A stretch of DNA of 64,000 nucleotides from Theionarchaea archaeon (GTDB lineage Archaea; Methanobacteriota_B; Thermococci; Methanofastidiosales; SZ-28-30), in contig JACVGT010000019.1 of assembly GCA_018992685.1 (NCBI GenBank), positions 1 through 64,000 of the forward strand, written 5' to 3'. Below the pieces are notes generated by a model. The model worked only from the letters and a program-made list of their open reading frames with translations, ran no database searches and was not told the origin of the DNA. Position 1 is the first letter of the stretch. Every line of letters starts with the position of its first letter. A program made the translations under genes and the position numbers. Positions 2,744 through 60,080 of the stretch are shown here, piece after piece.

Positions 2744-2746
2744 GGG

Positions 2747-38361: not shown

Positions 38362-39338
38362 AACTTGGTCCCCTCCCTTTTGTGCCAGCACTCAACATAG
38401 TGATCGCCAATCCACTCTCCGTTTGGCTGTTCCTTTTCACAAACCTCTGTTGCAAAGTCACACCGAGGATGGAACCGGCATCCAGATGGAGGATAGATTA
38501 GATTGGGGACAACACCCTTGATAACACCCAATTTCTGTTTCTTCTCTGTCACCTTGGGTATCGCCTCATGAAGTGCGATAGTATAGGGGTGAAGTGGGGC
38601 ATGAAAGACAATGTCAACTTCTCCATACTCAACCAGCCGCCCAGCGTACATCACTCCCACATGATCAGACATCTCGGCAATGACACCAAGGTTATGCGTG
38701 ATGAGCAAGACTGTTGTGCCTAGCTCTCTCTTGAGGTTGTTTATCATGTCCAAAACCTGTGCCTGAACTGTCACGTCGAGATTTGTCGTGGGCTCGTCTG
38801 CTACCAGCATTTTGGGATTACATGAGAGAGCCATTGCAATCATGACCCGCTGCTTCATTCCTCCACTAAACTGATGTGGAAAGTCATCAACACGGGCATC
38901 AGGGTCGGGGATACCCACGAGATCTAACATTTCAATTGCTTTCTGTCTAGCTTCTTTTTTCCCAAGACCCTGGTGAAGTTCAATCACTTCTCTCAATTGA
39001 TTGTCCACCGTATATACGGGGTTAAGTGCACTCTGAGGATCCTGGAATATCATTGAAATGTCATTCCCTCTGATTTGCCTCATGTCGCTCTCAGAAAGAG
39101 CCAGGAGGTTCACACCTTCAAAGAGAATCTCTCCATCAATAATCTTCCCCGGAGGATCGGGAACAAGTCTGAGGACAGACAGGGCAGTGACAGTCTTTCC
39201 ACAACCAGATTCACCGACCAGCCCTAAGGTCTCTCCCTGCTCAATGTGAATATCGATTCCTTCCAACGCTCTTACGATGCCATCCTCTGTATAAAAGTAC
39301 GTTCTCAGTCCTTTAATTTCCAGTAGATTATCAGCCAA
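38358..39338 (-). CDS. oppD: Oligopeptide ABC ATPase
   Basis: [16 protein letters not shown]. Confidence 0.95.
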
Positions 39339-39342
39339 AATA

Positions 39343-40269: not shown

Positions 40270-40284
40270 GAAATCACCTTTAGA

Positions 40285-41268
40285 CTAAAACTCCACTCTT
40301 GGATCAAGCCATTTGTAGGAAATGTCAATCAAGACATTAGCCACTAGAATAAGAGTTCCAAGTACCACGGTAATCCCTACAATGACGAAATAGTCCCTGT
40401 GCTGAATTGCATACACAAAGTACTTCCCCAGGCCGGGCCATGAAAACACTGTCTCAGTAATAGGTGCTCCTCCCAGGGTAAGTGCAATCTGCATCCCTGT
40501 CACAGTTATCACTGGAAGCATTGCGTTTCTCAGTGCATGCTTGTAAATCACTATTCGTTCCTTGAGCCCCTTGGCCCTTGCTGTCATGATATAGTCTTCC
40601 CGCAGGACATTGAGCATTGAGGATCGGACCAACCGCGCATTGTATGCAGTCGATGCCAGACCCAGAGTCAATGTGGGCAGAGCCAGATGTTTCAGGTAAT
40701 CAAAGTAGTACGAAAAGTCATGGGGAATATCTTTTCCCAGAAACACCGTAGAATGGGCACCCCCACTGGGAAGCCATCCCAGTATCAGGGCAAATATGAA
40801 AATGTTCATCAACCCCAGGAAGAATATGGGGAACGAAACGCCCAGTAACGCCGCTGTCATGACCAGATTATCCGTCTTTGAATATTGTCTGACTGCAGAT
40901 ACAATTCCTGCTGGGATAGCAACACCTATCGAAAAGACAACGGCAAGCAGCTGGTATGATAGGGTGTTTACCACTCTGGCCCCGATTTCTTCGGAGACAT
41001 CTCTTCCAGATAGAAATGAAGATCCAAGATTAAAGGTTGCAAACTGTTTGAGCCAGTAAAAGTACTGGATATACCAAGGTTTATCCAGGCCGTAAATCGA
41101 TTTTATGTGTGCCACGTATGCAGGATCAGTGTCGGGCTGTAGTGCCAACATGAGATCAACAGCATCCCCTGGCATCAAGTACATTAGCATGAACACTATG
41201 AAAGAGATTCCCATGAGCATGGGAATAATCAGGATCACTCTTTTCAGGATATATTCTCTCATTCCCAT
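40285..41268 (-). CDS. oppB: Oligopeptide ABC permease
   Basis: PGD, GLDKP, DYIMTARAKG. Confidence 0.95.
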   Translation of the reverse strand: MGMREYILKRVILIIPMLMGISFIVFMLMYLMPGDAVDLMLALQPDTDPAYVAHIKSIYGLDKPWYIQYFYWLKQFATFNLGSSFLSGRDVSEEIGARVVNTLSYQLLAVVFSIGVAIPAGIVSAVRQYSKTDNLVMTAALLGVSFPIFFLGLMNIFIFALILGWLPSGGAHSTVFLGKDIPHDFSYYFDYLKHLALPTLTLGLASTAYNARLVRSSMLNVLREDYIMTARAKGLKERIVIYKHALRNAMLPVITVTGMQIALTLGGAPITETVFSWPGLGKYFVYAIQHRDYFVIVGITVVLGTLILVANVLIDISYKWLDPRVEF

Positions 41269-41348
41269 ATCGCACATCCTCCTTTGTTTTGTTTAGAGCA
41301 AGTCTCCTCATGTCGGGGCTGTTCTTTCTTGTCCTCAGTCATTTCAAC

Positions 41349-41384
41349 TCTCCCTCTTCAAAAAAGGGAAAAAGAGGGAAAAAA
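41349..41384 (-). terminator. Hairpin/U-rich element between SBP gene and oppB
   Basis: CCCTCTT...AAGAGGG inverted repeat with T runs on the minus strand. Confidence 0.5.
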
Positions 41385-41394
41385 TTTTGTTCTT

Positions 41395-43314
41395 CTAGTC
41401 TTTCTTCTTTACCATGTACCCAATGGCAAGTCCGACTATCAGGGCAACTATTCCAATTACAATCAGTGTCGTGGTGGACGTACCACCAGCTCCAGCTTCT
41501 CCGCCTTCTACCGTTACCTGTTTCTCAATGATGTAGTAGCGGTATCCTGCCGTGTCCATCAATTCTCGTGCCTTGGCCAGGTCATACGGGTCTGGTGCAA
41601 TGTTGGTGTTGAAGGCCCATGAGGGAACAGCAACAGGGTTCCGTCCGGGTACACCGTAGCCACCCAACAGGTTGTCCACAATTCCCTGTCTGTCAATACA
41701 GGAGGAAATGGCCTGTCTCACGTACTTGTTGGCCAGGTATGGGTTGCGGCAGTTGAAGTGCAGGTGCTGGTAGCCGAACTGCTCTGAAGTCCACAACTTG
41801 ATGCCGGGAGTAGCTTCGAGATCCTCACCAATGGCTGTCAAGTTGTAGTAGGTGTCCATCATGTCGATTTCGCCAGTTTCCAGGGCAACACGGGCTGCCT
41901 CTCTCTCGGGTATCAATTTCAGCACAAAGAAGTCGCATCCTGCTTCTGGGAGACCATACTTTGAACCCCAGTAGTTGGGATTCTTCTTCAACTTCCAGTA
42001 CTGGTCAGCTTCCCACGAGTCAAAGATGAAGGGTCCAGAACCAATGACGGTTTCTCCCCTGTTGACGTCAGACTCCATCCACTTGGTAGCAGCTTCTGCT
42101 CCTGTTATAGGAATATCACCATAGAGGTGCTTGGGCAGAATGTTGGTGTCACAGTATCTGAGCCAGGCAGCGTGGGGCATTCCGACATACACTCTCAGTG
42201 TGTACTTGTCAACGATTTCTGATCCACCATAGACATCTCTGAATGTTCCATATCCCTGGAAGGCAGTATCTGGGCTGACACAGGCATCAAAGGACCACTT
42301 GATATCTTCGCTTGTCATTTCCACACCATCGTGGAACATGATGCCTTCTCTGATCTTAATGTCGAAGTATTCTGGGAAGACTACAGGTTCAGCGAGCTTG
42401 GAACTGACATTACACTTGTTGACATCAGGGGCCATAGCCTCAATTGAAGCATCGTCCAGCATGCTGGGGGCAAACACAATAGTAGGTCCTTCTGTTGTAG
42501 AATCTGCCAGCAAGGGTGACATGTTCAGGTTATCGTCGTTCTGCCACAGTGTCTGGAAAATCTGCTGGTTGCAGTAGTATCCATACACTGAGTTCCATCT
42601 CCAGACCAGCATTCCCTCAACAGCTGCAGGTGTACCATAGACAATGGTGTCTTTTCCAGGAATTGACCAGGACGCAGCATCATAGTTCTGTGTCCACAGC
42701 AATCCACTGAATCCTTCAAAGGTGTCTATTGAGGCCCACATGTTGAGTGGGATGTACACCACACAGTACGGCTGTTCATCTGCAACAATCTCCTGGAATC
42801 TCCACAGGTATTCCTTTCTCTTTGCCTGATCAATTTCGACTCGTGCTTTAGCCAGCATCTCGTCAGCTTCCGGGCAGTACCAGAATGTCACGTTGTTACC
42901 TATGGGGGTCATTGCAGAAGAGTGGAATATGTCAAAGGGATCAGGGTCTACGCCCACTGACCAGCCGAACGAAGAAATGTCGAATCCATCTTCAGAATAG
43001 GATTTTCCGTAGTAGTTGTTGAACTCCCTGTTGATCAGGTCTCCGAACTCCAGCAACTTGAAGTCAGCCTGAATGCCGATCTTGGGCATCTCAAGGTTGA
43101 CAGCCTGGGTGTACTGCTCTCTGACCTTGTTCCCGATAGGAGCAATCTGCGTAATCGAAAAGAACGGTGGGTACTTGGAATAATCCTCAGTAAAGGGAAC
43201 CTTCGTGATCTCCTGTTCCTGAGCAATCGCAGTAGTTCCGAATAAAGAAAGTACCAAAGAAGTCAAGAGAACAATCGACAGCACCATTGAGACTTTTCTT
43301 GTTTTTACATTCAT
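41395..43314 (-). CDS. oppA: Family 5 SBP paralog 1 (circularly permuted), operon-linked
   Basis: Signal peptide; FHDGVEMTSED, GSGPF, VRQAIS..IDR; plain C-terminal TM + KKKD. Confidence 0.9.
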   Translation of the reverse strand: MNVKTRKVSMVLSIVLLTSLVLSLFGTTAIAQEQEITKVPFTEDYSKYPPFFSITQIAPIGNKVREQYTQAVNLEMPKIGIQADFKLLEFGDLINREFNNYYGKSYSEDGFDISSFGWSVGVDPDPFDIFHSSAMTPIGNNVTFWYCPEADEMLAKARVEIDQAKRKEYLWRFQEIVADEQPYCVVYIPLNMWASIDTFEGFSGLLWTQNYDAASWSIPGKDTIVYGTPAAVEGMLVWRWNSVYGYYCNQQIFQTLWQNDDNLNMSPLLADSTTEGPTIVFAPSMLDDASIEAMAPDVNKCNVSSKLAEPVVFPEYFDIKIREGIMFHDGVEMTSEDIKWSFDACVSPDTAFQGYGTFRDVYGGSEIVDKYTLRVYVGMPHAAWLRYCDTNILPKHLYGDIPITGAEAATKWMESDVNRGETVIGSGPFIFDSWEADQYWKLKKNPNYWGSKYGLPEAGCDFFVLKLIPEREAARVALETGEIDMMDTYYNLTAIGEDLEATPGIKLWTSEQFGYQHLHFNCRNPYLANKYVRQAISSCIDRQGIVDNLLGGYGVPGRNPVAVPSWAFNTNIAPDPYDLAKARELMDTAGYRYYIIEKQVTVEGGEAGAGGTSTTTLIVIGIVALIVGLAIGYMVKKKD

Positions 43315-43363
43315 ATCTTTTCTACCTCCTTTGATCGGTATTGTATCCACGTACAGGGAAAGG

Positions 43364-43379: not shown

Positions 43380-43392
43380 TTTCAGTAGTATA

Positions 43393-43464
43393 TACTATCT
43401 TAAGTCGTAGCTAAAGCCAATAGTAGCATGCTACATTATATAATAGCTATTACCTTAAATAGTA
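43393..43464. promoter_or_regulatory. Two BlaI-type boxes upstream of the paralog 1 BRE
   Basis: TACTAT-CTTAA-GTCGTA (43393-43409) and TATTAC-CTTAA-ATAGTA (43448-43464). Confidence 0.65.
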
Positions 43465-43563
43465 AATTGAAGATTCTGGATTGGCTGCTTTTTACCTGGG
43501 CGGGCCGAACTCGGGCTTTTGCAGATAATCAAAAAAGAAACGCCGAAAAAATGAGAAACAAAG

Positions 43564-43752
43564 TCAGAATACGATGACAACTCCCATTTTCTCCAACAAG
43601 AAATATATACAGATCAGAAAGATAACAATCAGCCCCAAAATGAACAGCAGGGTGACTTTCTCTTTCGAATTCTTGTAATCTCTAGCGAAAATACCAATCA
43701 GTAGCACATCGCACACAATCGCTACCAGGAGTAGCAAAGCCTGTACATTCAT
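43564..43752 (-). CDS. Small 2-TM hypothetical protein
   Basis: AGGAGG SD; two hydrophobic helices. Confidence 0.6.
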   Translation of the reverse strand: MNVQALLLLVAIVCDVLLIGIFARDYKNSKEKVTLLFILGLIVIFLICIYFLLEKMGVVIVF

Positions 43753-43989
43753 CTAATTCCTCCTTTTCTAATCAGCATTTCGTAAGTTTTCAGATGTGGT
43801 GGTGTGTCCTCGTCACGTCGACATAAATACTTTTGGATAGGGTTCCTGTGTTACATAATCAAATCGTACTAATACATCATTTACAGCATAGTAGGAATTT
43901 TCTTACTATGCTGCAACTTCTATCTTGAAGAAATGATTATCATAAGAGGATTTCGTATGCTTTTCTTTCACTGCACTGCGTGTGCAATC

Positions 43990-44073
43990 ATCCATTGTCA
44001 AGCATAATTCTCCCTTTCTTACCAGCATCTTGTTATGTTCTTTCCAATTTCTGGTCATAAAACCATCTGGTTT
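43990..44073 (-). mobile_element. IS5-family remnant (84-bp near-copy of 45654-45737)
   Basis: Direct repeat with few mismatches encoding the transposase N-terminus. Confidence 0.8.
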
Positions 44074-44197
44074 TCTACAGTGACAATTCCTGGATGGACC
44101 ATCTCACAGAACAGGAAGAAGACTTTCCATTTGCGAGGAATTCAAGAAATTCTCTGGAAAAGCAAATCTTACTCTCCCTGTAGGACATCTCTCAGAG

Positions 44198-45133
44198 TCA
44201 GTACTGCCTTTCCAGTCTCATTATCTGTACAAAGTGCACGGCTACTAAAGTCAGTAGAGAAAGAACAAACACGATGAAAGTGTCAGAAATGATGTCATGT
44301 ATGTGGACAAAATTTGTGTCAATGCCTGTGTAGAGAATTTCGCCCGAGAAACTCGCTCTATCCAGTACGTGGAGGGTATCATTGAGGGCATACACGACTT
44401 CAGCGTCCATGATTGCTCCTGCAAAATCCTTCTGACTCTTGCGCACCTGGTAGTTATGATACGCTGTCTCCGCCATGAATATGTAGGACTCCGACAGGAC
44501 TTCACTATACGTATTTCTCAATGCGGCTTTCTCTGCATGATCTATAGTATTCTGGTAGCACTTGTCAAGAGGCAGTTCCTCCATAGTTTCAATAGAGGAG
44601 AACAATTCATTCAAGAATGCTTCATAGTGATCTGATTTCACAAAGTCGTCCCAGGAACTGGAATTTTCGCCACCATAATATTTCTGCAGTATTCTGCAGT
44701 ATTCTCCAGCATGACCTGAAATTCCTATTGCGTCAGGACCACAGGCCCACTTGTCACACACACGAAAATAGGCACCCAGAATCTTTGACTTGACCTCCAA
44801 TAGTGTACACTCACGAGCCTGCGTTCGGATTGTTCCACTGAAGAGTTTTTCTTCACTTTGAAGGTATTCGTGAAAATCCAGAAGATAGATGGAGTAGAGG
44901 GCACTTGTCTCTTTCTGGAAGTAATCAGAGAGCTCTTCTGGGTCATTTTTGTCAAGGGCTTCCCAATCTCTCTCTAGAATGTCTGAATTTTCTCTGACTA
45001 TCTCTTTCAGGTCAGATATGTTTTCTTCAATCTGTCCTTCGAATTGTTTCTGTCTATAGTAAGAGGTAGCCACCAGCCCTACAAGAAAAAGAACAATCCA
45101 AAGATAAATCAGCTCTTTTCGATTTTCTTTCAT
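44198..45133 (-). CDS. Hypothetical protein with N- and C-terminal TM helices
   Basis: 311-aa ORF; ATG 1 nt after the upstream stop. Confidence 0.65.
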   Translation of the reverse strand: MKENRKELIYLWIVLFLVGLVATSYYRQKQFEGQIEENISDLKEIVRENSDILERDWEALDKNDPEELSDYFQKETSALYSIYLLDFHEYLQSEEKLFSGTIRTQARECTLLEVKSKILGAYFRVCDKWACGPDAIGISGHAGEYCRILQKYYGGENSSSWDDFVKSDHYEAFLNELFSSIETMEELPLDKCYQNTIDHAEKAALRNTYSEVLSESYIFMAETAYHNYQVRKSQKDFAGAIMDAEVVYALNDTLHVLDRASFSGEILYTGIDTNFVHIHDIISDTFIVFVLSLLTLVAVHFVQIMRLERQY

Positions 45134-45134
45134 A

Positions 45135-45450
45135 TTAGAACGTCTTCCTCCATGCATCTTTAAATATGCCACGTATCAACGACTCTATGACTTCAGTACA
45201 CATGTCTTTCCATGCATCATTTCTGATGAAACTTTTGGTAATAGTCAAATAAGTCCGGTTCTCTTTTTGTGAAAGATAATCGCTTAGAGCATATCCCATA
45301 AGATATCCATTCCCCCAGTCTTTGGCCTCATCATCAGACATTTCAAGACTCCGTGTGAAGTTATAAGCCTCCTTATAGTCACGTAGTCGCGGTGTTTGCG
45401 AACCAAATGCTCCTAAAGTAACTGATGCTGGTTGGCTAAAATCAAAAAGA
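45135..45450 (-). pseudogene. 3' remnant of a gene truncated by the IS
   Basis: Open frame (...FGSQTPRLRDYKEAYNF...WRKTF*) runs up into the transposase fragment. Confidence 0.45.
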
Positions 45451-45806
45451 AATCCTACAGCAGAGACAGTCTGCTGAGGTAAGTCCCTCTGTATACTGCG
45501 ACAACTTTCTCAAAGTGCCTTTAACTGTCTATAGGACACGCTGAACACTGTCTTCGTCAGGGCAGTATATGCTATGAATTGAGGAAATGCAAAAGGGCTA
45601 CCTCGCTTGTTCACATTCATCTGCTGAAGTTCTTCATTCCAATATTCAATGAAATCCATTGTCAAGCATAATTCTCCCCTTCTTACCAGCATCTTGTTAT
45701 ATTCTTTCCAATTTCTGGCCATAAAACCATCTGGTTTCCCTATAGTATCCTTCTATTGGTTTATGCGTCAAACAAGGTATTTGAAGGCTAAATTGTACAA
45801 CACAGC
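45450..45806 (-). mobile_element. Truncated, frameshifted IS5-family (IS903-like) element, left end
   Basis: MARNWKEYNKMLVRRGE...SYRQLKAL then frameshifted RKLSQYTEGL..AD; terminal GCTGTGTTG resembles the IS903-group TIR. Confidence 0.75.
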
Positions 45807-45902
45807 AGATAGGGTTGAACAGCTAGAGTATGACCATCAGATTGGGGTAATCTTTATAAGGTATTGATAACCAACTCCCATGGTGATCTCATAAAACAGA
45901 TT

Positions 45903-46322
45903 ATGGCTCTACTGTGTTGCTTTCTGGTACTCGGCTGTACCATTGGTGTGAACCTTGATACACCTGAAAACACAGTGAACACATGGGTTCGATCGTACAA
46001 CGATCGGGATGTTGAGGGTATATATATAACACTGTCAAGAGCATACATCATGGCCAATGGCGGCGAGGAACGAGTGAAATCGATCATCGGGACCATGCTG
46101 GAAGAGGCTGAGGAATCAGAAATTTCGTTTACTGTGAAGGGGATTGGATTGCTTGCTTTGTCGACGGAACAGCCGGGATTGTCATCAGGCAGAACCATAT
46201 ATCTCGCGAGAATGGACAGGAAGTTTACAGAGGAAGGGGAGAAAAGAGTCGAAGAAGTCTTCTGGAATTTCGCTGTAGTAAAAGAAGACGACAAGTACAA
46301 GATCGAAGATTTCTGGGACTGA
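45903..46322 (+). CDS. Putative lipoprotein, NTF2/DUF4878-like
   Basis: LVLGC lipobox-like motif; TPE.TV......N..D; VKEDDKYKI. Confidence 0.6.
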   Translation: MALLCCFLVLGCTIGVNLDTPENTVNTWVRSYNDRDVEGIYITLSRAYIMANGGEERVKSIIGTMLEEAEESEISFTVKGIGLLALSTEQPGLSSGRTIYLARMDRKFTEEGEKRVEEVFWNFAVVKEDDKYKIEDFWD

Positions 46323-46439
46323 AAAGAGACGGATTTCTTATTCTTTTTGCACTTTCTTTCGCTGCCGTTATACGTCTCTACGCTTTCCACACATGGCCCA
46401 TATAGCATTTTAGGCAAGGCTGGTGCAGGAATGGTAAGC

Positions 46440-46797
46440 ACGCATTAGGATTGCTATGCAGGTTCTGGAACAGGAGGTGCCTCGTGGTGTTCACAGACAG
46501 AACGCACTCCTTGTGCTTCTAACAAGACTACCAGAATCCACAGAGAGTCATATTTCGCGTGAAGGAATGAAAATGTGAATTTGAACCCTCAGTTACCAGT
46601 ACTCTCTTTCTCAGGTTCTCTAACCTCATTGTTGAGTCAAATTCCCTAACAGCTTGCTTCTCCCGTTTGACGTCCTCTCACCACGGTGCCTTTCAGATTT
46701 CTGGTCACACTAGTCTGGGTTCTCCGTGTCTAATTTCCCGACCATTTTATGCTTCAAATAAGGTATTTGAATGAAAAATCGCGTAGTACACCACCAG
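46440..46797 (-). mobile_element. Highly decayed third IS5 left-end copy
   Basis: TTTATGCTTCAAATAAGGTATTTGAA matches the element at about 45760-45785; degenerate transposase-like codons follow. Confidence 0.45.
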
Positions 46798-50465: not shown

Positions 50466-51253
50466 TTCAGCAGACCATGTTTATTCGAAAAGAATCCTTT
50501 CTTCACTCTTTGGATCCCAGAACAAAGCTATTCTTATCCATTGGCCTGTTTCTCGTGGGTGTCCTGTTCACTGATTACAGAGTGCTGATGGCCCTCTTTG
50601 CAGGCGAGGTTATCATTCTCAGAGTGGCAGCCAGAATTCCTTTTTCGAAGTTATTCCCGTACCTGAAACTGATTCTTCCTCTTGTGGTTATGGCACTGCT
50701 GATATGGCCCCTCTTCCAGAGAACGGGGACAGTTCTGGTATCCTACTGGAAGGTTATCATCACGAAGGAGGGAATCCAGATGGGAATTGCCATGTCCTTG
50801 AGACTGCTGTCTTTGATCGTGGCTACGTATTTGCTCCTCATGACCACCGAGCAGAGAGATCTGGTTCTTGCTCTCGTTAAATCCGGATTGCGGTATGATT
50901 TCGGGTTAATGTTGGCCATTGCTCTGAGCAAGGTTCCTGCTCTGGCAGGGATTGCCTTGACCATCATGGATGCGCAGAAGGCACGAGGGCTCGAACTCGA
51001 AAAGGGAAATATCGTTGAAAAAGTGAGAAAGTACATACCTATTCTGATTCCATTGATTATTTCAGCTATAAGGCTGGCTGAAGCGTTGTCCATTGCAATT
51101 GATTCTCGAGCATTTGGGAGAGGGAGGCGCACCTACCTGAGAGAGCTTCACTTCACGATGAAAGATGCGCTGGTCACTGGTATGGCTGTGGTGGTGATTT
51201 CAGTATGTATGGGAATGCGTGCTGCAGGATATGGTGTTATGGAATTGCCGTGA
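50462..51253 (+). CDS. ecfT: ECF transporter T component
   Basis: LDPRTKL, AQKARG, DSRAF. Confidence 0.93.
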   Translation: MIQQTMFIRKESFLHSLDPRTKLFLSIGLFLVGVLFTDYRVLMALFAGEVIILRVAARIPFSKLFPYLKLILPLVVMALLIWPLFQRTGTVLVSYWKVIITKEGIQMGIAMSLRLLSLIVATYLLLMTTEQRDLVLALVKSGLRYDFGLMLAIALSKVPALAGIALTIMDAQKARGLELEKGNIVEKVRKYIPILIPLIISAIRLAEALSIAIDSRAFGRGRRTYLRELHFTMKDALVTGMAVVVISVCMGMRAAGYGVMELP

Positions 51254-52059
51254 TGGCTGTCGGAACCGTATTGATGTCGGCTGCACTGGAAAACCCGGTG
51301 GAGGGGTGGGCTGTCCTCATGGAAACCAATGATTTCCCTGGAGGGTACACTGATCTCCCTCTGGGCTTCGTGGATGTTGAACGAATGGAGACCCTGCTCC
51401 AGTACCACGGGTGGCAGAAATCACACATGCTACTAAGAAGAGATACTATTACGACGCAAGCAGTGAAGGAGGGTATTGCATACCTGCAGAAAGCAGATCA
51501 GAATGACATTGCTTTGTTCTACATTTGCTCTCACGGAGGATATCTGAGGCATGATCTCCAATGGAACAGTCTCATGCCTCCGCTCTGGGAGCGTGTTACC
51601 AGTGAAAAGAGAGTATTGATTATAGATTCCTGCTATGCAGGTTCCTTTCTGCCGGAAAGCGAGAGACCATACATCGGGATTGGCTCAGTTTCGGCTGACG
51701 AGCTTGGGTGGGCAGGCCTGCCAGAAGAGAACCTGCCTATTACCGGGTTCGTGTTCACCTACTACTTCTGCCAGTCCACCCTGGGAGTATCAGTTGAAGA
51801 GGGATTTGGAAGGGCCAGTCCCCAGGTACAGCAGTACATGCAGGATGTGGTCTATCCGGCTTTCAAGGAAGTCTATCCTCCCGAGCACTACAATGTCTAT
51901 GATCCTCATCCTGTGTTGAAGGATTCGTATCCAGGTGAGCTCTCCCTGTGGGTTGATGAGGGTGGAGTTTCTCTCTCTCAGGTTCTGGCTGTCCTGATGC
52001 TTCTCCTCCTGGGAATCATCCTTGCCCTGGATAGAAAAGGAATCTGTTCATGTGACTAG
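51250..52059 (+). CDS. Caspase/metacaspase-like (clan CD) peptidase with C-terminal TM
   Basis: FYICSHG and IIDSCYAG His-Cys dyad; start position uncertain. Confidence 0.8.
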   Translation: MMAVGTVLMSAALENPVEGWAVLMETNDFPGGYTDLPLGFVDVERMETLLQYHGWQKSHMLLRRDTITTQAVKEGIAYLQKADQNDIALFYICSHGGYLRHDLQWNSLMPPLWERVTSEKRVLIIDSCYAGSFLPESERPYIGIGSVSADELGWAGLPEENLPITGFVFTYYFCQSTLGVSVEEGFGRASPQVQQYMQDVVYPAFKEVYPPEHYNVYDPHPVLKDSYPGELSLWVDEGGVSLSQVLAVLMLLLLGIILALDRKGICSCD

Positions 52060-53214: not shown

Positions 53215-53997
53215 CTATTTGGGGAGTCGTCCCAGTTCCACCACTCCTTTGGAAACAATGCGCTGTACCGTTGTTCTGGATCCGATCTTCAGGCTGCCAT
53301 CACACATGACTTTCTGAAGAACGCTGTCAGATCCCACGTAGATATCTCCTTTACAGTATACATCTTCTTTTACTTCACAGAAATTCCCTATTTCCAGCTG
53401 GACTTCTATGTTCACCGGCGAATTCATAATATTTCTGTCTCCAAGAGATGCATCCTTACCTTTTATAGAACCCTTGAACTCACACTCGGCTTTGCTCTTC
53501 ACCGTTGAAGCCACCACATCCCCATACACCATATTTTTGCTACCAAGGTGGACTTCTTCTCCTGCTTCAATATTCCCTTTTATAATGACTCCATCTCCGA
53601 GGTGGATGCTGCGGCTGGTTTTCAGCCCTCCTGTAAGAACCAGATCATCAGAGAGGCTAATGTCTGAGTCTCTGGCCACAATGGCAAAGGTTTTCAGGGA
53701 AATCTCATCCTTTTTCTGCTGTATTACCTGTTGAAGTTCGGATATTTCAAGATTCTTTTCTTCAATAATCTGTTTCAGCTGGCGTTCAGTTTCTGCAAAA
53801 TTTTCCACCTTGTCCAGGAGAGCCTGGTTATCCTCAGTCAGCCTTTCGGCTACCTCTCGTAACTTGGACACTCCGCCGTATTCCTTCCTGTAGGTTTCCA
53901 ACTCCCTGGTGATACGGGAGTTTTCGTCCCGCAATTCGGTGGCCATCCGTCTTAGAGATTCTATAACCTCATCTTTTCCTTTGTCAAAGAGCCCCAT
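53215..53997 (-). CDS. Coiled-coil + bactofilin-like beta-helix protein
   Basis: N-terminal heptads; repeated IKGNIEAGEEVHLG / VYGDVVA strands. Confidence 0.7.
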   Translation of the reverse strand: MGLFDKGKDEVIESLRRMATELRDENSRITRELETYRKEYGGVSKLREVAERLTEDNQALLDKVENFAETERQLKQIIEEKNLEISELQQVIQQKKDEISLKTFAIVARDSDISLSDDLVLTGGLKTSRSIHLGDGVIIKGNIEAGEEVHLGSKNMVYGDVVASTVKSKAECEFKGSIKGKDASLGDRNIMNSPVNIEVQLEIGNFCEVKEDVYCKGDIYVGSDSVLQKVMCDGSLKIGSRTTVQRIVSKGVVELGRLPK

Positions 53998-54157
53998 GCT
54001 GTTCAACCTCCATTCTTTTTTTCTACAGCATATATATAGCTTTTTCCATTGCCATTGCCGGACTGGTGAAGACCACATCCATTGTCAAGTCAGGCTCTGT
54101 TCTTCATACGTGGCTGAGCAGAAAAGTCGTTTTCTTTCGCCAATGCGAAAATAAAGT

Positions 54158-54619
54158 TCACATTGAGGATTTTCTCTCAGTCAGCTCGAACAAGCAGTAG
54201 CTATCTCCGGCAGCCTGACAGGAGGTCTCCCTGTACATGATGTCTTCTTTACTGTAATATCTGGAAACCAGCCCCTCGAAAAACCCAGCCAGAAAATGAC
54301 ACACGGGGTCATTACTTTCCGCATAGCCAGAAGCAATCGGAGAATCAGTAACCTGGAACTGAAATTCTTCAGGATGAAAGGTAGCCCTCACAAAGCCAGT
54401 GGCTTCCAGCTCGGCCAAAAGATCCTGGATGGTGGCGCCTTCATCTTCTGATTGCATGATTTCCATGTACTTGTCGCCAAATTCCTTTCCTGCAGAGTAG
54501 AGAACTTTGGCCGCAGAGGGCCCAATGGAATCCTCCAGCGTTTTCTGGATTTTCATGAAAATGCTGTTAAGCACCACTAGCTTCCTCTTTTTTTCCACCG
54601 GCAGCAATTCTTTCATCAT
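54158..54619 (-). CDS. V4R-domain protein
   Basis: LY.AGKEFG, PVCHFLAGFFEG, ETSC.AAGD.YC.F. Confidence 0.9.
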   Translation of the reverse strand: MMKELLPVEKKRKLVVLNSIFMKIQKTLEDSIGPSAAKVLYSAGKEFGDKYMEIMQSEDEGATIQDLLAELEATGFVRATFHPEEFQFQVTDSPIASGYAESNDPVCHFLAGFFEGLVSRYYSKEDIMYRETSCQAAGDSYCLFELTERKSSM

Positions 54620-54742
54620 ATATCCTTTCAATCAGGACTTTATAAAGGTATAGGAGGCGAGCAAAGAGGTAGTAGACCTGCCTTCTTGCTGACATTTCAA
54701 GATCTGCTGCTCCGGTGTCTGCCATCACGCTGAGGAGCCACA

Positions 54743-55537
54743 CTACGAGCCAAACCAGGCATCTAGCCTCCTCTGCCCAGGCTGGGCCTTCCTGTACGGG
54801 ATGTTCAGAAGGTCCTTCAACATTCGTGCGTTGCTGATTGCCTGCCCTCGGGGGTGATTATTGAACTGGAGATACAAAGTCTCGGTTGAGAGACGTATTT
54901 CTTGCACTTTGGGTACCCACTCCTTCAATTCTTCTTCTGAGTATTGATAGTCATACCAATGCGATGGGTTCCTTCCATGCCATCTAACATATCCAAGATC
55001 TGATGTGATTCGTACGAGAGGTTCCATTTTCACAGAATCTGTCACAACAAAGGCGGCGTGGTCATCTCTGAGAAAGGAAACGTCAATTCTCGAGTCCCAG
55101 GAGGTGTGGCGGAACTCTACCGCAAACCGCACATTGTCAGGTAGAAAGTCCAAGAACTCCTTCAGGTTATCTTCATACTCTGTAGAGAACTTTGGAGGCA
55201 ATTGAATGAGGAAACAGCCCAGCTTTCCTGAATCTATGAGAGGAAACATCAAAGAATAGAATTCCTTGAACACCGGTTCTGAATTCTTGAGAAATCTCTT
55301 GTGAGTAATCTCTTTGGGGATCTTTGCGGTGAAGACAAAATCATCAGGTACCTTCTTGTTCCAGGAAATGACCGCGTACTTATTGGGTAGGGCATAGAAA
55401 GTGGAGTTAATCTCTACCAGATTGAATTCCCTTGCATAAAACTCTAACATCTTTCCCTTCTCAATGCCTTCAGGGTAAAACGGGCCAATCCAATCATCAT
55501 AGCTCCAGCCACTCGTTCCTATGTATAAGGTTCCCAT
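54743..55537 (-). CDS. DUF72 (YecE-like) protein
   Basis: IGTSGWSY, VEINSTFY, QLPP, EFRH, R.HG. Confidence 0.93.
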   Translation of the reverse strand: MGTLYIGTSGWSYDDWIGPFYPEGIEKGKMLEFYAREFNLVEINSTFYALPNKYAVISWNKKVPDDFVFTAKIPKEITHKRFLKNSEPVFKEFYSLMFPLIDSGKLGCFLIQLPPKFSTEYEDNLKEFLDFLPDNVRFAVEFRHTSWDSRIDVSFLRDDHAAFVVTDSVKMEPLVRITSDLGYVRWHGRNPSHWYDYQYSEEELKEWVPKVQEIRLSTETLYLQFNNHPRGQAISNARMLKDLLNIPYRKAQPGQRRLDAWFGS

Positions 55538-55720
55538 AGTAGGAGTTCTTCTGATACCAAAAAAATGTTACGGTTCCTGTGCTGTAATGAGCCCCTGTGA
55601 TACTTCTGCTCCTGTTCTGCTGAGCCCCCATATCGATGCAAGGCCTCACATCACACATCTTTTGTTCCCACATCGAAGGGACGTACTTCCAGCATCCGAG
55701 CTCAATCATCCACGTGTCAA

Positions 55721-55779
55721 CCGAAAGTCTTATAAGTAGTAGTTATTATAATAACAAGTAGCTACTACTAAAAGTAGTA
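55721..55779 (+). promoter_or_regulatory. BRE-TATA and perfect BlaI-type box of SBP paralog 2
   Basis: CCGAAAGT-CTTATAAG; TACTAC-TAAAA-GTAGTA at 55763-55779. Confidence 0.75.
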
Positions 55780-55799
55780 TCTACTACGGAAAATCGGAA

Positions 55800-55903
55800 C
55801 TCCAATACCGTCTGCTGGTTGAAGATGTCGGCCTCCTTGGATCGGTATTGCAGACACTGAACCCGATCAACATCACCTCCAGCAGATGGTATACAGAATG
55901 GAG
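55800..55903 (+). ncRNA. Structured 5' leader (long hairpin exposing CCUCCUU)
   Basis: 55805-55818 pairs with 55879-55892 (14 bp, 1 GU); inner GATGT/ACATC and GATCGG/CCGATC. Confidence 0.65.
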
Positions 55904-55921
55904 ACCAAAGGAGGAAGAAAA

Positions 55922-57811
55922 ATGAACACAAGAAAGATCTCAGTCGTATTGTCTGCCGTGTTACTTGCTTCTTTAACTCTATCCCTATTCGGAACCAGTA
56001 CTGTTGCACAAGAACAGCAGTGGAAAAAAGTGCCAACTACTGAAGACTATTCCAATTACCCCGCATTCTTTTCGATCACGCAGATTGCCCCCATTGGGAA
56101 CAAGGTTAGGGAACAGTATACACAGGCAGCCAACCTCGAAATGAGAAAAATCGGCATAGGGGCTGACTTCAGAATGCTGGAGTTCGGAGACCTGATCAAC
56201 AGGGAATTCAACAACTACTATGGCAGCACATTTGCTGAAGATGGATTCGACATTTCTTCATTCGGCTGGTCAGTGGGAGTAGACCCCGATCCCTTTGACA
56301 GTTTCCACTCTTCTGCAATGACCCCCATAGGTAACAACATTACATTCTGGTACTGCCCGGAAGCTGATGAGATGCTCTCTCTCGCACGAGTTGAACTTGA
56401 CCAGCAAGCCAGAAAGGAATACCTGTGGAGATTCCAGGAGATTGTTGCGGATGAAAAGCCCTACTGTGTGGTGTATGTGCCACTGCTCATCTGGGCCTCC
56501 ACAGATCAACTGGAAGGCTTTAATTCACTGATGTGGCAGCAGAACTTTGATGCTGTAACCTGGTCAATTCCAGGAAAAGACACCGTTGTCTATGGTACAC
56601 CCGCAGCTGTCGAGGGTATGCTGCCCTGGAGATGGAACTCAGTGTATGGACACTATCTTCACAACCAGATATTTGAGACATTGTGGACCGTTGCTCCAGA
56701 CCTCACCATTGAATCAAGAATTGCTGACTCTGCAACAGAAGGACCTTCAATCGTATTTGCCCCTAGCACTCTTGATGATGCTTCAATTGAGGCTCTCGGA
56801 CCTGATGTCAAGAAGTGTGTGGTGAACACCAAACTCGCAGGTCCTGTTGTGTTCCCCGAATACTACGACATCAAAATCAAAGAAGGCATCATGTTCCACG
56901 ATGGCGTGGAGATGACCAGTGAAGATGTCAAGTGGTCAATGGATGCCTGTGTCAGCGCAGACACCGCCTTCCAGGGATGGGGTACCTTCAGAGATGTATA
57001 TTCCAGCTCAGAAATCCTTGACAAGTACACACTGAGAGTGTATGTCGGGATGCCCCACGCAGCATGGGTACAGTATTGTAATCCATATGTATTGCCCAAG
57101 CATATCTATGGTGGCATTCCTATAACAGGAGCAGAAGCTGCCACCAGCTGGATGGAATCTGACATCAACAGAGGAGACACTGTCATTGGTTCAGGACCCT
57201 TCATGTTTGATTCCTGGGAAGCTGACCAGTTCTGGAAGATGAAGAAGACACCTGACTACTGGGGTTCTGCATATGGATATCTTGAAGCAGGATGCGACTT
57301 CCTGATACTGAAATTGATACCCGAGAGAGAGGCAGCCCGTGTTGCCCTGGAAACTGGAGAAATTGACATCATGTGCTGCTACTACCAGCTCGGAGCAATT
57401 GCTCAGGACCTGGAAGCTACCCCCGGCCTAGTGTTGTGGACCACAGAAGACTTCGGCTACCAGCACCTGCACTTCAACTGCCGCAACCCGTACCTTGCCA
57501 ACAAGTACGTGAGACAGGCCATTTCCTCCTGTATTGACAGACAGGGAATTGTGGACAAGTTGCTGGGTGGTTATGGTGTGCCTGGTGCCAACCCTGTTGC
57601 CGTTCCCTCGTGGGCCTTCAACACCAACATTGCACCAGACCCATACGATCTGGACAAGGCACGAGAGTTGATGGACACGGCAGGATATCGCTACTACGTC
57701 CTAGAAAAGACGGTGAGCACAGGCGGAGAAGAGGAAGCTGGAGGCGGATTCTGTCTGGGAACCCTGTTTATAGCCCTTATGAAGACTAATCATCTATTCA
57801 GGAGAGAGTGA
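55922..57811 (+). CDS. oppA: Family 5 SBP paralog 2 (circularly permuted, orphan, degenerate anchor)
   Basis: Close paralog of 41395-43314; ends CLGTLFIALMKTNHLFRRE. Confidence 0.9.
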   Translation: MNTRKISVVLSAVLLASLTLSLFGTSTVAQEQQWKKVPTTEDYSNYPAFFSITQIAPIGNKVREQYTQAANLEMRKIGIGADFRMLEFGDLINREFNNYYGSTFAEDGFDISSFGWSVGVDPDPFDSFHSSAMTPIGNNITFWYCPEADEMLSLARVELDQQARKEYLWRFQEIVADEKPYCVVYVPLLIWASTDQLEGFNSLMWQQNFDAVTWSIPGKDTVVYGTPAAVEGMLPWRWNSVYGHYLHNQIFETLWTVAPDLTIESRIADSATEGPSIVFAPSTLDDASIEALGPDVKKCVVNTKLAGPVVFPEYYDIKIKEGIMFHDGVEMTSEDVKWSMDACVSADTAFQGWGTFRDVYSSSEILDKYTLRVYVGMPHAAWVQYCNPYVLPKHIYGGIPITGAEAATSWMESDINRGDTVIGSGPFMFDSWEADQFWKMKKTPDYWGSAYGYLEAGCDFLILKLIPEREAARVALETGEIDIMCCYYQLGAIAQDLEATPGLVLWTTEDFGYQHLHFNCRNPYLANKYVRQAISSCIDRQGIVDKLLGGYGVPGANPVAVPSWAFNTNIAPDPYDLDKARELMDTAGYRYYVLEKTVSTGGEEEAGGGFCLGTLFIALMKTNHLFRRE

Positions 57812-57988
57812 CACTATTTGAAATCTCCTGATTGAGCCAAAAATCCCATAAAGATTTTATCCTTCAACCTAAGAACTCAACCTGTCAACATTTCTTATCC
57901 AGTATTACCAATAGTGTCATGACATATGCACCTTTCATCCCACTACCATAGCAGCAAGTAGCTCCGGGAGAAAGAACATTAATTCCAA

Positions 57989-58048
57989 GCGAAAGTTTTA
58001 TAAAGCACAGTAACTACTAAATTCAAGTAGTTACTATTTTAAATAGTA
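57989..58048 (+). promoter_or_regulatory. BRE-TATA and BlaI-type box of SBP paralog 3
   Basis: GCGAAAGT-TTTATAAA; TACTAT-TTTAA-ATAGTA at 58032-58048. Confidence 0.75.
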
Positions 58049-58064
58049 TCTACAACTGAGACAA

Positions 58065-58153
58065 TCCCGGACCGTTCACTGGATGAAGATGTCACCTCCT
58101 TTGATCGGTACTCTACATTCGATCCGACATCTCATCTGGTGGATGGTGCGGGA
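58065..58153 (+). ncRNA. Structured 5' leader homologous to 55800-55903
   Basis: 58071-58093 pairs with 58126-58147, with compensatory/GU changes relative to the paralog 2 leader. Confidence 0.65.
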
Positions 58154-58178
58154 AATGGAGACTAAAGGAGGATAAAAA

Positions 58179-60080
58179 ATGAATACGAAAAAGATTTCGG
58201 CAATCCTGTCAGTTGTGCTCGTTGCTTCTCTTGTGATATCCCTTTTCGGGACAACTACTGTCGCTCAAGAGGAAACCATGACACAAGTACCGTTCACCGA
58301 GGACTATTCCAAGTACCAGCCATTCTTTTCGATTACGCAGATTGCTCCCATCGGGAACAAGGTCAGAGAACAGTACACCCAGGCCGTCAACCTTGATATG
58401 CCAAAGATCGGCATTAAGGCTGACTTCAAGCTGCTGGAGTTTGGAGACCTGATCAACAGGGAGTTCAACAACTACTATGGTAGTACATTCGCTGAAGACG
58501 GATTCGACATCTCTTCATTCGGCTGGTCGGTGGGTGTAGACCCCGATCCCTTTGACATATTCCACTCTTCTGCAATGACCCCCATAGGTAACAATGTGAC
58601 GTTCTGGTACTGCCCTGAGTCTGACGAGATGCTGGCCAAGGCACGAGTCGAATCAAATCAGGAAACCAGAAAGGAATACCTGTGGAGATGGCAGGAAATT
58701 ATTGCAGATGAACAGCCCTACTGTGTGGTGTATGTGCCACTGCTCATCTGGGGCTCAACAGATCAGCTGGAAGGCTTTGACCCACTGTTGTGGCTGCAGA
58801 ACTATTCTCTGGAAACATGGGAAATTCCAGGAAAGGATACCATTGTCTATGGATCACCTGCGGCTGTCGAGGGTATGCTGCCCTGGAGATGGAACTCAGT
58901 GTATGGTCGTTATCTGCATTCACAGATCTTTGAGAGTCTGTGGCTTGTGGATAACAACCTGGTGATTTCACCCCGACTTGCAGAATCAGCAACAGCAGGG
59001 CCTACCATTGTGTTCGCCCCCAGCGCTATTGATGATGCTTCAATTGAGGCTCTGGCCCCTGATGTCAAAAAGTGCAAGGTGAATGACAAGCTCGCAGAGC
59101 CTGTCGTATTCCCCGAGTACTATGACCTCAAGATCAGGCAGGGCATCATGTTCCACGATGGCGTGGAGATGACCAGTGAAGATGTCAAGTGGTCAATGGA
59201 TGCTGTCATCAGTGCAGACACTGCCTTCCAGGGATGGGGTACCTTCAGAGACATATATGACAGCTCTGAGATTATTGACAAGTACACGGTAAGAGTATAT
59301 GTCGGAATGCCCCACGCAGCATGGGTTCTGTACTGCAACCCAACTGTACTGCCCAAGCATGTCTATGGTACTATCCCCATAACAGGAGCAGAAGCTGCCA
59401 CTAGCTGGATGGAGTCTGACATCAACAGGGGAGAGAACGTCATTGGTTCTGGACCCTTCATGTTTGATTCCTGGGAAGCTGACCAGTTCTGGAAGATGAA
59501 GAAGACACCCAACTACTGGGGTGTCAAGTATGGTGTTCCCGACCCACAATTCGAATACTTCCTCATCAAGCTGATACCCGAGAGAGAAGCTGCACGTGTC
59601 GCTCTGGAAACTGGAGAAATTGACATCATGGACACGTACTACCAGCTCGGAGCAATTGCTCAGGATCTGGAAGCTACTCCTGGGTTGAAGCTGTGGACCA
59701 CAGAAGACTTCGGCTACCAGCACCTGCACTTCAACTGCCGCAACCCGTACCTGGCCAACAAGTACGTGAGACAGGCCATTTCCCACTGTATTGACAGACA
59801 GGGAATTGTGGACAACCTGTTGGGTGGCTACGGTGTACCCGGTGCTAACCCTGTTGCCGTCCCGTCATGGGCCTTCAACACCAACATTGCACCAGATGCA
59901 TATGACCTGGTCAAGGCTCGGGAAATGATGGACAAGGCAGGATACCGCTACTTCATCGTTGAGAAAGCAGGCGCAGCTGGTGGAGAAGAGGAAGCCGGAG
60001 GCGGACTCTGTCTAGGAACCATGTTCATAGCCCTTATGGTCTTGGGCGGAAATCTGCTCTATCTCAAGAAGAAAGAGTAA
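58179..60080 (+). CDS. oppA: Family 5 SBP paralog 3 (circularly permuted, orphan) with CLGT-TM-basic tail
   Basis: Close paralog; ends GGGLCLGTMFIALMVLGGNLLYLKKKE. Confidence 0.9.
   Translation: MNTKKISAILSVVLVASLVISLFGTTTVAQEETMTQVPFTEDYSKYQPFFSITQIAPIGNKVREQYTQAVNLDMPKIGIKADFKLLEFGDLINREFNNYYGSTFAEDGFDISSFGWSVGVDPDPFDIFHSSAMTPIGNNVTFWYCPESDEMLAKARVESNQETRKEYLWRWQEIIADEQPYCVVYVPLLIWGSTDQLEGFDPLLWLQNYSLETWEIPGKDTIVYGSPAAVEGMLPWRWNSVYGRYLHSQIFESLWLVDNNLVISPRLAESATAGPTIVFAPSAIDDASIEALAPDVKKCKVNDKLAEPVVFPEYYDLKIRQGIMFHDGVEMTSEDVKWSMDAVISADTAFQGWGTFRDIYDSSEIIDKYTVRVYVGMPHAAWVLYCNPTVLPKHVYGTIPITGAEAATSWMESDINRGENVIGSGPFMFDSWEADQFWKMKKTPNYWGVKYGVPDPQFEYFLIKLIPEREAARVALETGEIDIMDTYYQLGAIAQDLEATPGLKLWTTEDFGYQHLHFNCRNPYLANKYVRQAISHCIDRQGIVDNLLGGYGVPGANPVAVPSWAFNTNIAPDAYDLVKAREMMDKAGYRYFIVEKAGAAGGEEEAGGGLCLGTMFIALMVLGGNLLYLKKKE

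Follow-up and report, generated by a model that had tools for sequence, protein, structure and literature searches.

In IS10, RNA-OUT forms a stable stem with a loop from which pairing to its target, RNA-IN, starts; the paired region of RNA-IN is its 5′ end with the ribosome-binding site. RNA-OUT is transcribed opposite its target locus, i.e. it is cis-encoded and fully complementary. AbcR1 and AbcR2 carry anti-SD-like motifs in unpaired regions, and these motifs mask translation initiation regions. Post-transcriptional control in Archaea is poorly known, and we know of very few archaeal base-pairing regulators with a defined target. According to the abstracts of the studies on AbcR1 and AbcR2, these are base-pairing RNAs of alpha-proteobacteria that control the mRNAs of ABC-transporter binding proteins (PMC4152367, PMC3712013). 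GcvB is likewise summarised as controlling oppA and dppA, and cross-talk between ABC-transporter mRNAs has been reported in abstract (PMC4474525, PMC9988348). In Listeria, the abstract of the respective work describes the hly 5′ UTR as acting in trans on prsA2 mRNA by base pairing (PMC8722363).

The window analysed here is a stretch of 64,000 nucleotides from an uncultured, Theionarchaea-like sediment archaeon. Two orphan SBP_bac_5 genes are located on its plus strand, one encoding 629 aa (55922–57811), with no permease or ATPase gene adjacent, and the other 633 aa (58179–60080). No transporter genes are found beside the leader-bearing SBP genes. The third paralogue (41395–43314, minus strand) heads a complete Opp/Dpp-type ABC operon on the minus strand (37393–43314), which further contains two permease genes (40285–41277 and 39343–40269) and two ATPase genes (38358–39338 and 37393–38391). 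This is the only linked Opp/Dpp ABC operon. The paralogous proteins are 73–81% identical, and the leader-bearing SBPs form one clade (support 98/98) apart from the operon type.

A preliminary description of the locus held that both orphan genes have structured leaders with a long outer stem, in which pairing is retained in spite of different sequences. The folding results bear this out: all listed elements (stems, inner GATCGG, GGAGAC and SD) are present in the sequence of both leaders, and the MFE folds of both consist of the same helices P1, P2 and P3. Specifically, the plus-strand hairpin of leader 1 (55800–55903) is built of the outer stem P1 (55805–55818/55879–55892, extended by 55800–55804/55899–55903), P2 (GATGT 55823–55827/ACATC 55870–55874) and the inner stem P3 (GATCGG 55840–55845/CCGATC 55863–55868). 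In leader 2 the hairpin spans 58065–58153 on the same strand, with P1 at 58065–58086/58132–58153, P2 at GATGTC 58088–58093/GACATC 58126–58131, a bulge at 58094–58102 and P3 at GATCGG 58103–58108/TCGATC 58119–58124. The GGAGAC block (55900–55905 in leader 1, 58157–58162 in leader 2) and the SD GGAGG (55910–55914 and 58167–58171) precede the ATG codons at 55922 and 58179, all on the plus strand; block and SD are invariant in four of four leaders, i.e. these two and the leaders L014 and L016 of a sister genome. P1 comprises 14–18 bp plus extensions, and the displayed bulge has 9–11 nt. Compared with 200 dinucleotide shuffles each, fold stability of the whole leader has z = −3.31 for leader 1 and −4.65 for leader 2, while the hairpin alone gives −3.47 and −5.85, respectively. 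With z-scores from −3.3 to −5.9 the hairpins are real and selected.

The anti-SD in the bulge has a paired probability of 0.00–0.02 in the ensembles of leader 2 and L014; in L016 six of its seven positions do not exceed 0.14, and in leader 1 the value reaches 0.53. The leaders' own SD has a per-base paired probability of 0.00–0.59, mostly not above 0.2, and is free in the MFE folds of all four leaders, which sets the element apart from an RNA thermometer. The leader sequence has no T-run after the hairpin, as an intrinsic terminator or attenuator would have, and neither a kink-turn (no tandem G·A pattern) nor a bulge-helix-bulge motif is conserved across the four folds. A conserved leader peptide was considered and rejected. 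Leader 2 does contain a frame of 30 codons that opens at an ATG in P1/P2 and closes with a TAA shortly ahead of the true start; it lacks an SD and sits within the stems. In leader 1 the corresponding frame is cut short by an early stop, and L016 does not have it. The reading frame of the L014 leader is open and continues into the gene; this yields a false N-terminal extension of 32 residues and is of consequence for annotation.

Four copies of the element are known, belonging to three lineages in two genomes of one genus. Compensatory changes, which had been claimed for the two window copies, amount to 3 of 27 RNAalifold pairs altered on both sides when these two are compared. RNAalifold across all four copies gives 9 of 23 predicted pairs, and with our own structure 9 of 18 P1 pairs are altered on both sides. 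Sliding the partner strand by 1–3 columns leaves 0–4 double-changed P1 pairs as compared to the 9 observed, and none of 500 shuffles reaches the observed count. L016, a third paralogue lineage, has the same architecture with a completely different P1 sequence; moreover, the 3′ strand of its P3 is replaced, while the 5′ strand of P3 and the loop start UAUUG are retained. The most conserved bases of the leaders are found in the unpaired bulge and loop start rather than in the stems. Among the differing letters listed from sequencing runs, none lies inside a leader. The leaders are a conserved RNA structure with compensatory changes.

The leader length of about 150–160 nt given in the preliminary description agrees with the promoter positions. 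A BRE/TATA element of the CGAAA-N-TTATAA type is located at 55722–55736 for gene 1, and gene 2 has its BRE/TATA at 57990–58004 (both plus strand), which, by the usual archaeal spacing of about 30 nt from the first T of the TATA box, predicts TSSs at about 55757–55759 and 58025–58027. For the operon SBP the BRE/TATA is at 43378–43364 on the minus strand and the predicted TSS at about 43341–43344. All homologues have this CCGAAA...TTTATAA box in their upstream regions. Gene 1 carries a dyad, TACTA-N7-TAGTA (55763–55779), shortly past its predicted TSS, which in the leader RNA also makes the first small 5′ hairpin, and gene 2 has one downstream of its predicted TSS at 58032–58048. The dyad is found at the same position in leader 2, L014, L016, L017, L025 and L029. 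Its side relative to the TATA box differs between the two kinds of gene, downstream for the orphans and upstream for the operon gene. Seven sites in the genome versus 4.2 expected do not amount to enrichment, so its meaning rests on the conserved position in homologues. The dyad is a likely repressor operator.

Contigs from RNA libraries run from within leader 2 into the gene (58051–58477 at depth 127, 58081–58477 at depth 110) and from leader 1 into gene 1 (55833–56204, depth 2.8). The region 43494–46478 has zero RNA depth, though it is covered by a DNA run. In the RNA-library contigs, which show neither ends nor processing, the leaders have the same depth as the coding regions, and nothing points to a small RNA accumulating on its own. 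Metatranscriptome contigs contain abundant homologues of gene 2 as well as of the operon SBP and give no sign of target mRNA loss, though contigs do not measure such loss.

Regarding membership in known families, the preliminary description did not recognise a known riboswitch in the element, and the Rfam check agrees: Rfam 15 at gathering thresholds has no match in the whole 64-kb window, and at E up to 10 the region 55500–58400 gives three chance-level matches only, the best being mir-976 with 19.9 bits versus a gathering score of 100. A covariance model searched against 34 genomes of the order recovers no copy beyond the four already known; every other match has E > 0.004. The preliminary description had also named a dispersed MITE as an identity that would speak against its reading. 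This was rejected: the 17-mer of leader 2 occurs within two mismatches at only four places in 3.03 Mb (both leaders, the operon SBP UTR and one two-mismatch site on C8), BLAST of leader 1 against the genome gives no significant match beyond itself, and the covariance model agrees. A riboswitch gains no positive evidence. Its ligand core should recur across many taxa and genes, and the copies are confined to one genus; in addition, a P1 of 14–18 bp is probably too stable to switch. The protein itself is present in 5 of the 34 genomes, source genome included. A scan of genome contigs gives six homologue loci, four of them close relatives, and a metagenome scan adds one locus without the hairpin. 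The locus itself also occurs in sediment and mangrove metagenomes. Long hairpin leaders of other sequence also occur in more distant homologues. The element is a genus-restricted, structured 5′ leader of about 150–165 nt on orphan Opp/Dpp-type SBP mRNAs.

The preliminary description did not notice that the same displayed segment is complementary over 17–20 nt to the 5′ UTR of the third paralogue. In leader 1 the segment 55831–55850 (plus strand) covers the bulge, the 5′ strand of P3 and the loop start and contains the anti-SD CCUCC; it is complementary, with one internal mismatch, to the minus-strand RNA of 43324–43343. This is the entire short predicted 5′ UTR of the operon SBP, from about +1 through the SD at 43329–43325. 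The plus-strand segment of leader 2 (58094–58110; anti-SD plus extension) is the exact reverse complement of 43324–43340; three matching loop bases at its end have been lost, which shortens the match from 20 to 17 nt. This 17-mer has exactly one further occurrence in 3.03 Mb, namely antisense of the operon SBP 5′ UTR. In the sister genome L014 matches the UTR of its operon paralogue over 20 nt with zero mismatches and L016 with one mismatch. A cis-encoded antisense pair of the RNA-OUT type does not fit, the segments (55831 and 58094) and the target (43324) lying in different genes. Within the paired stretch the two genomes do not differ in their target UTR.

Net pairing energies of the four leaders to the operon UTR, after opening costs, are −19.1, −22.0, −27.1 and −22.5 kcal/mol, as compared to −8.0 to −12.0 kcal/mol for the leaders' own SD regions. 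These values come from a segment-restricted calculation; full-length duplexfold over-extended the duplex and opened the whole hairpin. Among 8,055 genomic GGAGG sites the operon UTR is the best partner of both leaders after their own antisense strand, for leader 1 with a lead of only 0.9 kcal/mol (raw duplex energy) over the next site. A k-mer control on antisense copies of SD regions was swamped by paralogous coding repeats, with strand sense undefined. The leaders thus have a mostly single-stranded seed complementary to the translation initiation region of the proposed target, as expected of an AbcR1-like function. The pairing suggests that the leader may be an mRNA-borne regulator acting in trans, as antisense between paralogues, on the 5′ UTR of the operon SBP. 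This is the explanation we prefer, tentatively, and we rate it somewhat short of probable.

If the leader does act in trans, the following course can be imagined. The stable P1-P2-P3 hairpin would fold during transcription, leaving its own SD free and displaying the 17–20-nt antisense sequence from the bulge into the 5′ strand of P3 and the loop. The single-stranded bulge seed CCUCCUU(U) would contact the SD of the operon mRNA, and pairing would extend into GAUCGGUA(UUG), displacing the short P3 stem. Such a duplex would cover the site at which ribosomes bind the message of the resident SBP. Production of orphan SBPs would thus lower translation of the resident one and let the orphans use the permease and ATPase in common with it. 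Divergence directly upstream of the orphan SD, where GGAGAC stands in place of UACCGAUC, would spare the ribosome sites of the orphans themselves. L016 also pairs with the SD region of the orphan L014 (−20.8 kcal/mol), and for this reason the wiring may be more complex than orphan against operon.

The common TACTA-N7-TAGTA dyad suggests that one transcription factor would control the orphan and operon genes in opposite ways. Taken together with antisense pairing, this would make a paralogue-silencing circuit of an archaeon: once the binding-protein gene had been duplicated, the spare copies would have gained a leader serving as antisense RNA to the site where ribosomes bind the message of the original, the dyad would have switched sides of the TATA box, transcription and translation together would swap the binding protein of the single permease, and divergence next to the SD would give self-immunity. 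As deduced from sequence, the whole circuit is possible, though we hold it a little more cautiously than the antisense pairing by itself.

The bulge CCUCC lies 70–80 nt upstream of the leader's own SD, and this invites a reading in cis, in which the hairpin with free SD would exchange with a fold pairing anti-SD and own SD, driven by a protein, ligand, helicase or temperature. Such riboswitch- or attenuator-like control takes in the pseudoknot with the own SD of the preliminary description. When the 5′ strand of P1 is blocked, the MFE fold pairs the anti-SD with the SD core in three of four leaders, L016 pairing with the upstream GGAG block instead; the enforced nested anti-SD:SD fold is only 8.6–15.5 kcal/mol above the hairpin, and the conserved GGAGAC block beside the SD might be a decoy partner. 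What speaks against it is first the outer stem: P1 has 14–18 bp plus extensions in a sequence that differs in each paralogue, so no common trans factor could open it, and it would be complete by the time the polymerase reaches the SD. The helix of leader 1 stops 6 nt short of the SD, which makes a bulge-SD pseudoknot sterically implausible with P1 intact; the SD could probably reach the bulge only on melting of the outer stem. Complementarity to the own SD is 5–9 bp and poorest in L016 (only 5 bp), while GAUCGGUA and UAUUG, conserved beyond the anti-SD, are without a partner in cis. The element also has neither an Rfam family nor a wider phylogenetic spread. We consider control in cis unlikely, and the pseudoknot the weaker reading.

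The complementarity could also have been left behind when the ancestral UTR was duplicated in inverted orientation, and retained because the stems depend on it, with the hairpin merely protecting or pacing the mRNA. The 3′ strand of P3 in leader 1 (CCGATCAA) resembles the operon UTR, as expected of an ancestral anti-SD:SD inverted repeat, homologous dyad boxes occur in the upstream regions of all three paralogues, and the hairpin leaders of different sequence in more distant homologues are in line with a stabilising role. In proteins only 73–81% identical and with P1 rewritten, however, unconstrained non-coding sequence is expected to be unrecognisable. Conservation is highest in the unpaired bulge and loop-start bases and lower in the stems, and the L016 segment is unchanged although its pairing partner has changed. 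A relic is thus rather doubtful, somewhat more so than control in cis.

A conserved asymmetric bulge held by helices of variable sequence has the usual look of a recognition site, and the bulge can be likened to the 16S rRNA 3′ tail by its CCUCC core, so that the leader could bind a ligand or a protein, e.g. one recognising that tail. (The assembly contains no SSU rRNA gene.) The leader has no known motif, no tandem G·A k-turn pattern and no Rfam match, and such a site would leave the match to the paralogue UTR beyond the SD unexplained; we regard it as improbable. More improbable still is that the 17–20 bp are a DNA operator, bound in either orientation at about +1 to +20 in the operon gene and about +70 to +90 in the orphans. 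Orientation would be irrelevant for a DNA site, and in the operon gene the sequence occupies the position of the orphans' TACTA dyad. The sequence is not itself a dyad, though, it includes the SD, which must act as RNA, and the compensatory changes of the flanking helices make sense only for a folded strand.

If antisense pairing between paralogues is true, duplicated binding-protein genes sharing one ABC translocator would be kept from competing, and an archaeal mRNA would act as a riboregulator of its own paralogue. The design would be compact and testable by mutation, consisting of a stable stem, a 17–20-nt antisense and a 20-nt target. General importance is modest unless paralogue-directed leaders occur elsewhere, since the element is limited to one uncultured genus. 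A full-text literature search, judged by abstracts, found no description of an mRNA-leader regulator between paralogues in Archaea.

Among the systems compared, AbcR1 and AbcR2 share with the leader a base-pairing RNA, an anti-SD seed and an ABC binding-protein mRNA as target; as far as their abstracts describe them, they are independent bacterial sRNA genes with Hfq and many targets, whereas an archaeal mRNA would here regulate through its own 5′ leader, with a paralogue as target and a far longer match of 17–20 nt. With GcvB and transporter cross-talk, as abstracted, the likeness lies in post-transcriptional control of SBP_bac_5-family proteins and in one transporter mRNA affecting another; GcvB works through a G/U-rich region with a sponge mechanism, while the leader would pair directly with the SD of the other mRNA. 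The hly-prsA2 case resembles ours in that one mRNA affects another in trans through its 5′ UTR; it is bacterial, joins a non-paralogous virulence factor and chaperone and, going by the abstract, apparently operates without SD masking, unlike here. IS10 RNA-OUT similarly presents a loop or bulge seed on a stable stem against the 5′ end and ribosome-binding site of its target, but the loci considered here are 12–15 kb apart and share only 17–20 nt. Translational riboswitches and RNA thermometers are alike in having a structured 5′ leader with an anti-SD element. Those elements balance two folds, one of which hides the SD, whereas here the dominant fold leaves the SD open, a stem of 14–18 bp keeps the anti-SD fixed within a bulge, and no ligand core is conserved beyond one genus.

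The two tandem genes at 55922–57811 and 58179–60080 (plus strand; orphan genes 1 and 2) encode SBP_bac_5 proteins with 81% identity, and no permease or ATPase gene adjoins them. A third paralogue (41395–43314, minus strand; 76% identical) is the first gene of a complete Opp/Dpp operon containing two permeases and two ATPases. All three proteins are circular permutants: relative to B. subtilis AppA (1xoc), their residues 301–590 align with 65–345 and their residues 49–214 with 359–516, so that the usual C-terminal part comes first. Pfam detects the middle domain alone (315–600). The C-terminus, a Gly-rich linker followed by a hydrophobic tail, looks like an archaeal C-terminal anchor. The genome assembly comprises 3.03 Mb in 45 contigs and is 91% complete. 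In a scan of genome contigs the closest public loci belong to a MAG labelled Theionarchaea, and the source of the window is Theionarchaea-like. Caspase-domain, FapA/bactofilin-like and V4R-domain proteins are encoded nearby (51205–52059, 53215–54078 and 54158–54631); no link between these neighbours and the leaders was found.

Both orphans have the same 5'→3' order: BRE/TATA box (55722–55736 and 57990–58004), TACTA-N7-TAGTA dyad (55763–55779 and 58032–58048), long hairpin (55800–55903 in leader 1, 58065–58153 in leader 2), conserved GGAGAC block, strong SD and ATG. The usual archaeal distance from TATA box to start predicts 5' UTRs of about 164 nt for gene 1 and 152 nt for gene 2. The BRE/TATA box of the operon gene (43378–43364, minus strand) lies only about 50 nt ahead of its ATG, which leaves a predicted 5' UTR of about 30 nt. 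Gene 1 has an in-frame ATG at 55886, inside the leader. In L014, the gene 2 orthologue of a same-genus genome, leader and gene share one open frame (2405–4402; 665 aa instead of 633 aa), and automated annotation could add a false N-terminal extension across the hairpin. In that genome there is a single gene at this place, directly after a DUF72 gene.

RNA contigs came from two metatranscriptome libraries of a strain about 89% identical; they show no ends, strand or processing. Two run from inside leader 2 into gene 2 (58051–58477, depth 127; 58081–58477, depth 110) and one covers 55833–56204 (depth 2.8), from within leader 1 into gene 1. The operon SBP gene has a depth of 40–50, and 43494–46478 has zero RNA depth though covered by a DNA run. 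As the contigs span leader and gene while 43494–46478 is at zero, the leader very likely belongs to the mRNA. Contigs of the RNA and DNA runs also cross between the tandem paralogues (57008–57361 versus 59251–59655; skips of 2293, back-steps of 2244–2245). Either the assembly crossed over where the copies are nearly identical, or some strains have a recombined or single copy.

The preliminary description of a structured RNA leader in two copies holds: all helices it named, here the outer P1, the second P2 and the inner P3, are present in the minimum-energy folds, with energies 3.3 to 5.9 standard deviations below those of dinucleotide shuffles (z −3.3 to −5.9), hence greater stability. Relatives of the SBP protein are rare (six loci, four of them close, in the genome-contig scan; one in the metagenome scan), and 5 of 34 genomes of the order, that of the window included, have it. 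Four genes carry the hairpin: genes 1 and 2, L014, and L016, a third orphan paralogue in L014's genome that is 73% identical to gene 1 and has an MFS gene after it. L016 preserves the P1-P2-bulge-P3 layout, and the sequence of its 15-bp outer stem is entirely different. Although four sequences from three lineages are a small sample, the compensatory signal claimed earlier is clear: RNAalifold alone predicts P1 and P2 with 9/23 compensatory pairs, and 9 of the 18 P1 pairs are changed on both sides, where slid partners give 0–4 and none of 500 shuffles attains 9. The leader has no match in Rfam 15, and a dispersed repeat (MITE) is ruled out. BLAST of leader 1 against the genome gave itself as the sole significant match, just four sites genome-wide lie within 2 mismatches of the conserved 17-mer, and a covariance model of the four copies, searched in the 34 genomes, returned the same four (E 1e-25 to 1e-37) and no others (all else E > 0.004). 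The leader is thus a real, new and very narrowly distributed RNA element. Leader-bearing orphans form a single clade (support 98/98) separate from the operon type, which indicates that the leader arose once; it has lasted through roughly 19–27% protein divergence. Long leaders are also present in the more distant homologues L017, L025, L026 and L029, where the dyad boxes make up different hairpins. In the 100–170 nt upstream of their SBP starts the anti-SD hairpin is absent, and the partner of the TACTA boxes is a conserved TAGTAGTGTA block; these pairings would be either RNA structures or paired DNA operators.

Sequence conservation falls into two blocks, the bulge between P2 and P3 with its flanks (GA.GAU.UC, ACCUCCUUU, GrUCGsUA, mostly UAUUG) and GGAGAC plus SD. 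The bulge contains an anti-SD (paired probability 0.00–0.02 in leader 2 and L014), and the leaders' own SDs are unpaired in the MFE fold. The preliminary description did not note that the conserved segment (bulge and 5' strand of P3) is the reverse complement of the operon UTR, over a stretch that starts at about +1 and includes the SD (43343–43324, minus strand). Leader 2 matches at 17/17 positions, leader 1 over 20 nt with one mismatch, L014 at 20/20 to the operon UTR of its own genome (L015), and L016 with one mismatch and one G·U pair. A 14-mer ending in GGAGG occurs four times as a tandem repeat on contig C1 of assembly G000 (about 278015–278519, minus strand; spacings 126, 252 and 126 nt).

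With pairing limited to the segment and the opening cost of both partners charged, net energies of the four leaders to the operon UTR are −19.1, −22.0, −27.1 and −22.5 kcal/mol. Pairing with an orphan SD region, whether the leader's own or that of the other orphan, yields −8.0 to −12.4 kcal/mol, L016 onto L014 (−20.8 kcal/mol) being the exception. The orphans escape their own bulge because GGAGAC flanks the SD where the operon UTR has UACCGAUC. Each leader's own antisense strand aside, none of 8,055 GGAGG sites on both genome strands pairs better than the operon UTR (leader 2: −30.6, with the runner-up at −27.3, mean −15.4 and sd 2.8; leader 1: −31.8, with the runner-up at −30.9).

We tentatively propose, at somewhat less than even confidence, that the orphan mRNA leaders are built-in antisense RNAs against the operon paralogue. 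The bulge would seed on the SD of the operon mRNA and pairing would lengthen through opening of P3. The resident SBP would be translated less, and the orphan SBPs could then use the shared translocator. The segment might instead control the leader's own gene, which we consider unlikely. An anti-SD:SD fold does become best in 3/4 leaders once the P1 5' strand is blocked, but otherwise this nested alternative is dearer by 8.6–15.5 kcal/mol. The outer stem forms ahead of SD synthesis, is 14–18 bp long and differs in sequence per paralogue, and is therefore implausible as a switching helix. The pseudoknot with its own SD suggested earlier is probably out of reach in leader 1 as long as P1 is intact, since only 6 nt separate the base of the helix from the SD. 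Moreover, complementarity of L016 to its own SD is down to 5 bp and its P3 partner strand is replaced, yet the 20-nt segment is retained, which points to a sequence constraint from outside the leader. Readings of the segment as a protein or ligand site and as a DNA operator seem to us very unlikely and most unlikely, respectively.

The P3 3' strand of leader 1 resembles the UTR, so the element may have originated when the ancestral UTR was duplicated in inverted orientation. The same similarity would suit a hairpin that is a mere stabiliser with the antisense match as a relic; we regard this as quite unlikely, less so than the two site readings, because the best-conserved bases are the unpaired ones, for which inverted duplication alone would not account.

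The dyad follows the TATA box in the orphans, while dyad-like boxes precede BRE/TATA in the operon gene (43390–43460, minus strand). This opposite placement suggests that a single regulator could act oppositely on the two kinds of gene. TACTA-N7-TAGTA lies just downstream of the TATA box/TSS in all long-leader homologues (L014, L016, L017, L025, L029). Exact sites number 7 genome-wide versus 4.2 expected, those outside the two leaders being C3:151181, C4:4145, C12:3276, C17:27788 and C34:10544; any regulon is thus small.

Among the Theionarchaea literature matches listed, no title concerns RNA regulation. The closest functional analogues are AbcR1/2 and GcvB, sRNAs acting on binding-protein mRNAs, the Listeria hly-prsA2 mRNA-mRNA pair, and IS10 RNA-OUT. 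The leader element belongs to none of these. Base-pairing regulators seeded by an anti-SD, the kind to which it appears to belong, are already known; what would be unusual is that an mRNA leader targets its own paralogue, and does so in an archaeon.
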